Below are positions 10,850-12,265 of a stretch of DNA of 25,124 nt, one piece after another (the stretch's first letter is position 1; the number at the start of each line of letters is the position of its first letter). The stretch is from a virus (lineage: Duplodnaviria > Heunggongvirae > Uroviricota > Caudoviricetes), in the IMG/VR virus record IMGVR_UViG_2703718836_000005, positions 1-25,124 of that record. One strand, 5' to 3'. The position numbers were made by a program, and so were the translations under genes. The notes below the pieces were generated by a model. It saw only the letters and a list, made by a program, of their open reading frames with translations. It was not told where the DNA came from and did not search any database.

Positions 10850-12265
10850 AAACGCCGTAAACCCTCGCCTAATGCGGGCGGGTATATAAGGCGAAAAGCC
10901 AACAGGGCTTTAAAAAAATCATTACGGTGTTAGCATAAAAAGCCTGTATCAATGAGCGGTGACTATGTTAAGAGCAACAAAAGTACGCATTTACCCGACA
11001 CCAGAACAGGCAGAGTACCTCAATGCCCAGTTCGGTGCAGTGCGCTTTGCGTACAACAAAGCTCTTCACATCAAAAAACATGCTTACCAGCGACATGGAG
11101 TAAATTTAAGTCCGCGTAACGATCTGAAACCGCTGCTTGCAGTGGCAAAGAAATCCCGCAGGTATGGATGGCTTAAAGAATATGATTCTATTGCGTTGCA
11201 ACAGGCGGTAATTAATCTTGATGTGGCATTTTCCAACTTTTTTAATCCGAAGCTGAAAGCGCGGTTCCCGACGTTTAAACGTAAACACGGAAAACAATCG
11301 AGCTATCACTGTGTCGGGATTAAGGTGCTGGATAATGCCATCAAAATCCCAAAACTGTCCCTAATAGAAGCACGCCTTCACCGTGAACTTCATGGAAAGC
11401 TGAAAAGCATCACTATCACCTGTTCAGCAACGGGGAAATACTATGCTTCAATTCTCTGTGATGATGGCATGGAAGCTCCGGCAAAACCCACGTTGATATC
11501 AACAGTTACTGGCCTAGATATGGGATTATCGCACTTTGCCATCAAGTCTGATGGGGTAAAAATTGCAAATCCCCGCCATCTCATCAATGCCAGCCGTAAT
11601 CTGCGACGCAAACAAAAAGCCTTATCCCGCAAGCAAAAGGGAAGCGCGAATCGTAAAAAGGCCACAATCCGTCTGGCAGCGTTACACGAACGGGTGGCTA
11701 ATGCCCGTGCTGATTTTCAACACAAGCTCTCTCGTGCAATTGTTGACGAAAACCAAGCGGTAATTGTCGAGACGCTGAAAACAGCCAACATGATGAAAAA
11801 CCACAATCTGGCAAGAGCGATAGGTGATGCAGGCTGGCATAGCTTCATCACAAAGCTGGAGTACAAGGCAGCGGAAAAAGGCGTTCACCTAGTAAAACTC
11901 GACCAGTGGTTTGCCAGTTCGAAAGCCTGCTATTGTTGTGGTTACAAAATGCCGGAAATGCCGCTTCATAAACGCATCTGGCGATGCCCTGAATGTGGAG
12001 CAGAGCACGACCGCGATATCAATGCGGCACTCAACATCCGGCAAAAAGGAATACTGGAACTACAGGCGGCGGGACTCGTCGTCTCCGCCCATGGAGGCCA
12101 GCGTAAATCCGTCGCACAGACGGTTGTGGCCTGAGAAGTGGGAAGCCTCGCCCGACAGGGCGGGGAGCAGTCACAAACTGACCATTAAAGTAAATGCAAA
12201 CGATGATCTGATGATGGTTGCGGCCTAAGAAGCCTGACACCACGGGGTTGTCCCCGTCTGTGTAT
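10850..12265 (+). mobile_element. IS200/IS605-family TnpB-only insertion element (boundaries approximate)
   Basis: tnpB flanked by related subterminal hairpins CTCGCC...GGGCGG at about 10864-10884 (left) and 12146-12165 (right), plus a second right-end hairpin ACGGGG-TTGT-CCCCGT at 12242-12257; no tnpA present. Confidence 0.45.
10959..12134 (+). CDS. tnpB: TnpB (OrfB) RNA-guided nuclease-like transposon protein, IS200/IS605 family
   Basis: 391 aa with the typical N-terminal MLRATKVRIYPTPEQ, RuvC-like split motifs and C-terminal zinc ribbon CYCCGYK...CPECGAEHDRDINAALNI. Confidence 0.9.
   Translation: MTMLRATKVRIYPTPEQAEYLNAQFGAVRFAYNKALHIKKHAYQRHGVNLSPRNDLKPLLAVAKKSRRYGWLKEYDSIALQQAVINLDVAFSNFFNPKLKARFPTFKRKHGKQSSYHCVGIKVLDNAIKIPKLSLIEARLHRELHGKLKSITITCSATGKYYASILCDDGMEAPAKPTLISTVTGLDMGLSHFAIKSDGVKIANPRHLINASRNLRRKQKALSRKQKGSANRKKATIRLAALHERVANARADFQHKLSRAIVDENQAVIVETLKTANMMKNHNLARAIGDAGWHSFITKLEYKAAEKGVHLVKLDQWFASSKACYCCGYKMPEMPLHKRIWRCPECGAEHDRDINAALNIRQKGILELQAAGLVVSAHGGQRKSVAQTVVA

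Follow-up and report, generated by a model that had tools for sequence, protein, structure and literature searches.

The window, a 25,124-nt stretch of the IMG/VR virus record IMGVR_UViG_2703718836_000005, carries a TnpB-only insertion sequence of the IS200/IS605 type in the backbone of a P1-like phage-plasmid. Very probably this is a tnpA-less element of the ISEc46 group that was inserted once, that would act through a TnpB guided by an omega RNA and that would be mobilised in trans. Elements of this kind are already known and the present one is an unremarkable example of a class that has been studied well; searches of the literature on ISEc46 and on TnpB together with phage-plasmids found no paper describing this insertion. 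The main value of the analysis lies in the correct annotation of the ends, the TTAG target, the structure of the omega RNA and the position of the guide for a TnpB element with a wide distribution among enterobacterial plasmids.

Insertion boundaries and target site

The limits of the insertion (10846-12174, + strand, 1329 bp) were set by alignment with phage P1, which matches the window in two blocks: positions 10401-10845 correspond to 2302-2741 of the P1 locus (L001) and positions 12175-12509 to 2742-3111. The element is missing from P1 between 2741 and 2742, and it is because the two blocks meet there without gap or duplication that the boundaries can be fixed. P1 represents an exact empty site, reading GGCGGTTTAG and AAACTGACC uninterrupted or, over a longer stretch, ...GCGGCGGTTTAG running directly into AAACTGACCATTAAAG... 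without interruption. The inserted sequence is bordered by no target-site duplication and has no terminal inverted repeats. A similarity search of phage genomes found that P1, P7, D6, SJ46 and other P1-like phages match the flanks only. The same two boundaries occur in five independent, unrelated contexts (IncI1/IncF-type plasmids, a zitB-linked plasmid locus and a chromosome), in each of which TCAG is the last motif of the left flank and ...GGGCGGGGAGCAGTCAC the last stretch of the element; matches of element positions 1-1329 or 3-1329 stop at identical bases in unrelated plasmid contexts. The element and its immediate surroundings comprise the following features.

10841-10845, + strand: TAM TTTAG in the left flank, outside the element (P1 empty site ...GGTTTAG/AAACTG)
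10846-12174, + strand: whole insertion sequence (absent from P1; recurring ends in unrelated contexts)
10846-10958, + strand: left end (LE) with a subterminal imperfect hairpin at 10862-10883 (ISEc46 similarity, family conservation)
10959-12134, + strand: tnpB, predicted RNA-guided endonuclease gene (Pfam, NCBIfam and ISDra2 match)
12064-12174, + strand: predicted omega RNA scaffold with 3' tail AGCAGUCAC (RNAalifold, covariation)
12146-12165, + strand: subterminal hairpin of the right end (RE), CCTCGCCC-GACA-GGGCGGGG, also RNA helix 5
12171-12174, + strand: RE terminal motif TCAC, the transposon-encoded counterpart of the TAM (AGTCAC at the right boundary)
12175-12190, + strand: predicted guide template of 16 nt, AAACTGACCATTAAAG, extending to 12194 for a 20-nt guide (RE boundary and ISDra2 precedent)
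12242-12257, + strand: backbone hairpin outside the element (P1 homologous sequence with 35 extra bases inside)

Insertion 3' of a tetra- or pentanucleotide without duplication, as is usual for IS200/IS605 elements, was observed here (TTTAG/AAACTG in P1). Of 53 family loci, 52 have one of two motifs directly 5' of the left end, TTAG in 46 and TCAG in six. The preliminary description had recognised a TnpB-only IS200/IS605-type element in a phage-plasmid, and the ends, the TnpB domains and the P1 empty site bear this out. The comparison with relatives that it proposed recovered the uninterrupted site in P1 and in 447 E. coli records, an outcome that favours this description. Its right limit of 12265 (approximately 12257-12265) was too far to the right, since the true boundary is 12174 and 12265 lies in P1 backbone. 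The second hairpin that it reported at 12242-12257 does exist but belongs to the P1 backbone and not to the element.

Transposon ends

Subterminal imperfect palindromes at 10862-10883 and 12146-12165 stand in place of terminal inverted repeats; these are the related CTCGCC...GGGCGG hairpins that had been described on the two sides of the ORF. The LE hairpin (CCC-T-CGCCt-AATGC-GGGCG-GGt) departs from the family consensus at two positions, 10870 and 10883, and folds more weakly than the LE hairpin of ISEc46, being weakened by the two substitutions, which may impair recognition by TnpA. The LE is conserved throughout the family (53 loci), and element positions 1-86 are 88 % identical to the LE of the full-length ISEc46 of E. 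coli AST215. At the right boundary, AGTCAC is near-invariant in approximately 70 loci. Taken singly and folded as DNA, the end hairpins show no excess of stability over shuffled sequence (z -0.8 and -0.6); their significance derives from conservation and covariation over approximately 70 related loci and not from single-sequence folding, both hairpins being kept across these loci and the RE stem showing compensatory changes. The sequence just 5' of the LE hairpin covaries with the target, with GTAAACC accompanying TTAG and GAGAACC accompanying TCAG. This correlated change fits the DNA-guide model of target choice by TnpA (summarised in PMC10055086).

Relationship to ISEc46 and absence of tnpA

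A scan of one genome per species identified 80 loci with relatives of this TnpB (57-87 % amino acid identity), mostly in Gammaproteobacteria, and nearly all of these loci end in the same RE, a hairpin and then AGTCAC. Some relatives, such as that of Serratia plymuthica (L013), have a divergently oriented gene for a 141-aa IS200-type Y1 transposase (TnpA) between the LE and tnpB. Full-length copies with both tnpA and tnpB in E. coli are annotated as ISEc46 (e.g. L091) and have the LE and RE in common with the window element. When aligned with full-length ISEc46 (1763 bp), element positions 1-86 and 82-1329 fall on either side of a gap of approximately 431 bp that corresponds to tnpA, the only segment that the window element lacks relative to ISEc46.

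A tblastn search of the whole 25-kb window found no tnpA, in agreement with the preliminary description. A Y1 (HUH) transposase TnpA is thus not encoded by this IS200/IS605-type element, yet it is encoded by full-length relatives with the same ends, so the window copy is, by its gene content, a non-autonomous derivative, and its movement would need a transposase in trans. Genes for ISEc46-family tnpA were present in 473 of 5426 complete E. coli genomes (~9 %), and a supply of transposase in trans is a plausible arrangement for the window element. Absence of tnpA is not unusual, as the gene is found nearby for only ~25 % of tnpB genes and TnpB-only elements are the norm (PMC10055086).

Nucleotide identity to elements annotated as ISEc46 was 81-82 % (approximately 81 % over tnpB), and amino acid identity of TnpB to a copy annotated as ISEc46 was 87.7 %. 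ISfinder practice treats copies as the same IS at roughly at least 90 % nucleotide or at least 95 % amino acid identity. By these values the element is a related but distinct member of the ISEc46 group.

Other members of the family were seen on plasmids and phages. IS-typing pipelines report ISEc46 on IncI1-type plasmids, where 93 %-identical copies occur. Four such 93 %-identical copies on IncI1/IncF-type plasmids (L006, L008, L009 and L010) are located near antirestriction, DUF1380, ParB-like and hok/gef genes, a gene content of the leading-region type; their target is TCAG and the flank of their LE hairpin is GAGAACC, not GTAAACC. The P1-like phage RCS47 (L002, 2501-3841) carries another tnpB-only element of the ISEc46 family, with 82 % nucleotide identity, inserted elsewhere, immediately past repL, where it adjoins a TTCAG motif. 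The location of the RCS47 copy indicates that P1-like genomes gained the ISEc46 family more than once.

The TnpB protein

The tnpB ORF is intact and encodes 391 aa from a GTG at 10959, or 389 aa from the ATG at 10965 that is the start used in RefSeq relatives. Pfam domains HTH_OrfB_IS605, OrfB_IS605 and Cas12f1-like_TNB (zinc ribbon) were identified, the NCBIfam name of the protein is RNA-guided TnpB and RefSeq already annotates it as an RNA-guided endonuclease. Residues 5-382 (378 residues) match the solved TnpB of ISDra2 with an E value of 3e-79. Both hallmarks of a TnpB of the OMEGA type, the RuvC-like D-E-D triad and the zinc-finger (TNB) domain, were found: D187, E271 and D353 align with D191, E278 and D361 of ISDra2, and all four cysteines of the CxxC...CxxC zinc finger are present (C324, C327, C343 and C346). 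The intact 391-aa TnpB with a zinc ribbon that had been read from the sequence was therefore recovered from the ORF, the domains and the cysteines alike.

Ratios of dN/dS against relatives were 0.05-0.30 and by this measure tnpB is evolving under purifying selection; the value mirrors the history prior to insertion. The closest TnpB relatives (93 % amino acid identity) adjoin TCAG and not TTAG, and a search among the family loci for TnpB residues that track the TTAG or TCAG target class found none. As the nearest relatives are at TCAG and no residue tracks the class, acceptance of TTAG as the TAM by the window TnpB is assumed.

Predicted omega RNA and guide

For the RNA analysis, stretches of 200 nt that end at the RE boundary were aligned for 47 relatives and a structure was derived with RNAalifold. 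A conserved structure spans 12064-12165 and consists of five helices.

12064-12070/12078-12084, + strand: RNA helix 1 (RNAalifold)
12088-12092/12138-12142, + strand: RNA helix 2 (RNAalifold)
12096-12102/12126-12131, + strand: RNA helix 3 (RNAalifold)
12109-12113/12119-12123, + strand: RNA helix 4 (RNAalifold)
12146-12153/12158-12165, + strand: RNA helix 5 (RNAalifold)

Counting of pairs on the 47-relative alignment found 97.4 % of cells paired, compared with 36-54 % when the partners were slid by 1-3 columns. Compensatory changes on both sides were present in 19 of 31 pairs, and none of 500 shuffles reached the observed values. A long-range pairing of 3 bp suggested by RNAalifold (12015-12017 with 12170-12172) was discarded because its columns are fixed by the codon for a catalytic Asp. 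The structure at 12064-12165 is what would be expected of an omega RNA scaffold. A scan of 10000-13500 against Rfam (Rfam 15) found no match to an omega RNA family. The same scan returned weak, sub-threshold tmRNA-like hits, mostly in the P1 backbone.

The flank that follows the RE is different in each context, in agreement with a guide derived from the flank. At the level of sequence, the element thus has the arrangement of an OMEGA system, with a covarying RNA structure that overlaps the tnpB 3' terminus as well as the RE, and with a copy-variable flank as the putative guide. In ISDra2, the RNA consists of the tnpB 3' end and the RE and its last ~16 nt are flank-derived (PMC8612924). From this precedent and the RE boundary at 12174, the guide template is predicted to be 12175-12190, a sequence that is unique within the window. 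The covariation lends support to the earlier proposal that the right end encodes a structured, guide-bearing RNA. The guide had been placed at 12258-12285, which is P1 backbone, and is relocated to 12175-12190 by the RE boundary.

Genomic context in the P1 backbone

The element is located in the leader of the C1-controlled ban operon and has the same orientation as the operon. Two backbone features lie upstream of it.

Approximately 10585-10612, strand not assigned: C1 repressor operator pair and ban promoters (Pban; P1 annotation transferred by alignment)
10779-10805, + strand: intrinsic terminator closing the dicF-like region, 40 bp upstream of the element

Within the operator pair, ATTGCTCTAATAAATTT occurs at 10585-10601. 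The preliminary description had the insertion directly after a repressor-controlled promoter; the C1 operators and Pban are instead approximately 230 bp upstream of the element, with the dicF-like region and the terminator between. A promoter scan detected no consensus sigma-70 site in the LE, and its single match was inside tnpB and within chance expectation.

The upstream gene is the P1-type fused Dcm/Dam methyltransferase gene dmt. In the window, dmt (8576-10594) has 672 codons, compared with 754 in P1, and relative to L004 an internal segment of approximately 246 bp is apparently missing. From 12510 onward the window no longer follows P1: it lacks the genes for tRNA-Asn and tRNA-Thr and has in their place an integrase fragment and further genes. 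One downstream gene (12979-13914, + strand, 311 codons) has an in-frame stop at codon 105 and is intact in the near-identical plasmid pBS15R-A_1; the homologue in a relative is annotated as a pPIWI-associating nuclease domain protein. Directly to the right of the element, UAAAUGCAAACGAUGAUCUGAUGAUGGUUGCGGCCUAA in the backbone at 12187-12228 resembles a tmRNA tag frame (ANDDLMMVAA followed by a stop). Matches to the tmRNA_permuted model were weak and fell short of its gathering score of 47, at 32 bits (E value 5e-4) for the window and 24 bits for P1, and ARAGORN identified no tmRNA in the window or in P1 and no tRNA in the window. This resemblance may be due to chance.

Distribution among E. 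coli genomes

Among complete E. coli genomes, the P1-like locus was detected in approximately 577 records. The exact 40-nt uninterrupted junction, comprising the TAM and the 16-nt target, was present in 447 records, equivalent to 445 of 5426 genomes (~8 %). The insertion was present in 14 records, with right flanks that are all at least 99.5 % identical, and four records have a window-type right flank without the insertion (94-96 % identity). This distribution fits a single insertion in one sublineage followed by vertical spread. A search of the flanks of the occupied replicons gave no indication that the element had homed repeatedly into different backbones of the P1 type, as the occupied flanks are near-identical (at least 99.5 %) while the nearest empty ones are ~96 % identical.

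In one occupied replicon, NZ_CP020936.1 (L005, 3001-4329), the element is at the same P1 site but its interior is 94.4 % identical to that of the window element (5.6 % diverged). All 74 differences are between element positions 113 and 1218, the ends are identical and the flanks are ~99 % identical. This pattern suggests recombination or gene conversion between this copy and a further member of the ISEc46 family.

Proposed mechanism and alternative explanations

Under the favoured explanation, the Y1 transposase gene tnpA would have been lost by a clean deletion of approximately 431 bp that kept both ends and tnpB, and the resulting element would have inserted once, 3' of TTAG in the ban-operon leader of one sublineage of P1-like phage-plasmids. 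As covariation indicates, the element would specify a structured omega RNA through the RE and the adjoining 3' part of tnpB. Transcription continuing into the flank would, by analogy with ISDra2 and ISGst, generate an RNA with a guide of ~16 nt, AAACUGACCAUUAAAG. On the model of the same two systems, TnpB loaded with this RNA would cut a sequence that combines the TAM with a match to the guide, which is the uninterrupted site. A cleavable site of this type would arise at the donor joint once the element is excised, or would be offered by a P1-like genome that shares the cell and has no such element, and repair from an occupied copy would restore or spread the element (PMC8612924, PMC10055086). 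Movement to new sites would depend on TnpA provided in trans by a full-length ISEc46-family copy. The upstream terminator and the lack of a recognised promoter in the LE were counted against this explanation, as were the weakened LE hairpin, the TCAG sites of the nearest TnpB relatives and the near-identical flanks of all 14 occupied replicons.

An immobile relic, a passenger left behind that is neither mobilised nor used any more and is intact only because it was inserted recently, would account for the lack of tnpA in the window, the LE hairpin weakened by two substitutions, the restriction of the insertion to one near-clonal sublineage of 14 records and the failure of the scan to recognise a promoter. 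This reading is somewhat unlikely, as the ORF, the catalytic residues, the RE and the RNA helices are all intact and the same-site copy of L005, with its diverged interior, identical ends and closely similar flanks, argues for continuing exchange with family members; the dN/dS of 0.05-0.3 against relatives also opposes it, though reflecting pre-insertion history. The location in a repressor-controlled operon leader, in the orientation of that operon, could also be expected of a domesticated TnpB, whether a nuclease-dead or repurposed regulator resembling TldR or a native phage gene serving P1 biology. TldR proteins are marked by loss of the RuvC residues and of the transposon ends, whereas here the triad and both ends are intact. 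Moreover, the site is scarless and free of the gene in P1 and 447 relatives, and the element recurs in plasmids that are unrelated, its flank, and hence its guide, changing from one to the next. Domestication therefore has a very small probability and was already largely refuted by the empty site.

The occurrence of the exact TAM and target in 447 records, 8 % of complete E. coli genomes, raises the question of an RNA-guided weapon or gene drive, by which an occupied plasmid would cut, exclude or convert element-free P1 relatives, and cut-and-copy is a mechanism already demonstrated for nucleases of this family (PMC10055086). However, a match between guide and empty site is automatic for any TnpB insertion and does not require selection, only one sublineage is occupied, acceptance of TTAG is assumed and no promoter was recognised. 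A weapon or drive is thus improbable. Since the element is within a C1-controlled transcription unit, its expression might be switched on when C1 control is lifted; that its omega RNA, addressed to the ban-leader site of ~8 % of E. coli genomes, serves as a homing or exclusion device among phage-plasmids, perhaps at C1 derepression, is distinctly improbable. RNA-guided competition among P1-like phage-plasmids is possible but unsupported. With a predicted guide that matches hundreds of empty sites, the insertion that we favour as a trans-mobilised ISEc46-group element provides a natural setting in which to ask whether competition between mobile elements is tilted by the RNA-guided nucleases that transposons encode.

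Comparison with related elements

The closest known system is that of ISEc46 (IS605 group; E. coli), with which the window element shares the LE start and hairpin, the RE hairpin, the AGTCAC terminus, the TTAG target and the orientation of tnpB, with TnpB proteins ~88 % identical in amino acid sequence. ISEc46 differs in having tnpA and a length of 1763 bp, whereas the window element is without tnpA (deletion of ~431 bp), has a length of 1329 bp and has two substitutions in the LE hairpin. ISDra2 of Deinococcus radiodurans has a homologous TnpB, with an aligned D-E-D triad and zinc finger, and an RNA that covers the tnpB 3' end and the RE with a guide from the flank (PMC8612924). Its TAM is TTGAT, compared with TTAG here, it has its own tnpA, and the RNA of the window element is predicted from covariation.

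The ISGst families of Geobacillus stearothermophilus and elements of the IS1341-type arrangement likewise have tnpB and an omega RNA between IS200/IS605 ends without tnpA, and such tnpA-less elements are presumed to be mobilised in trans (PMC10055086). They belong to another TnpB clade and have other ends and another TAM. Unlike the ISGst case, the window element can be traced to an autonomous parent type (ISEc46) and its loss of tnpA to a mappable deletion. IS608 of Helicobacter pylori resembles the window element in its subterminal imperfect hairpins and in insertion 3' of a tetranucleotide without duplication. It differs in its target (TTAC) and in the order and orientation of its genes, and TnpA is not encoded in the window copy. 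IS608 is the reference for the mechanism of TnpA, and in the family of the window element the sequence 5' of the LE hairpin changes along with the target (GTAAACC with TTAG and GAGAACC with TCAG), in keeping with the DNA-guide model.
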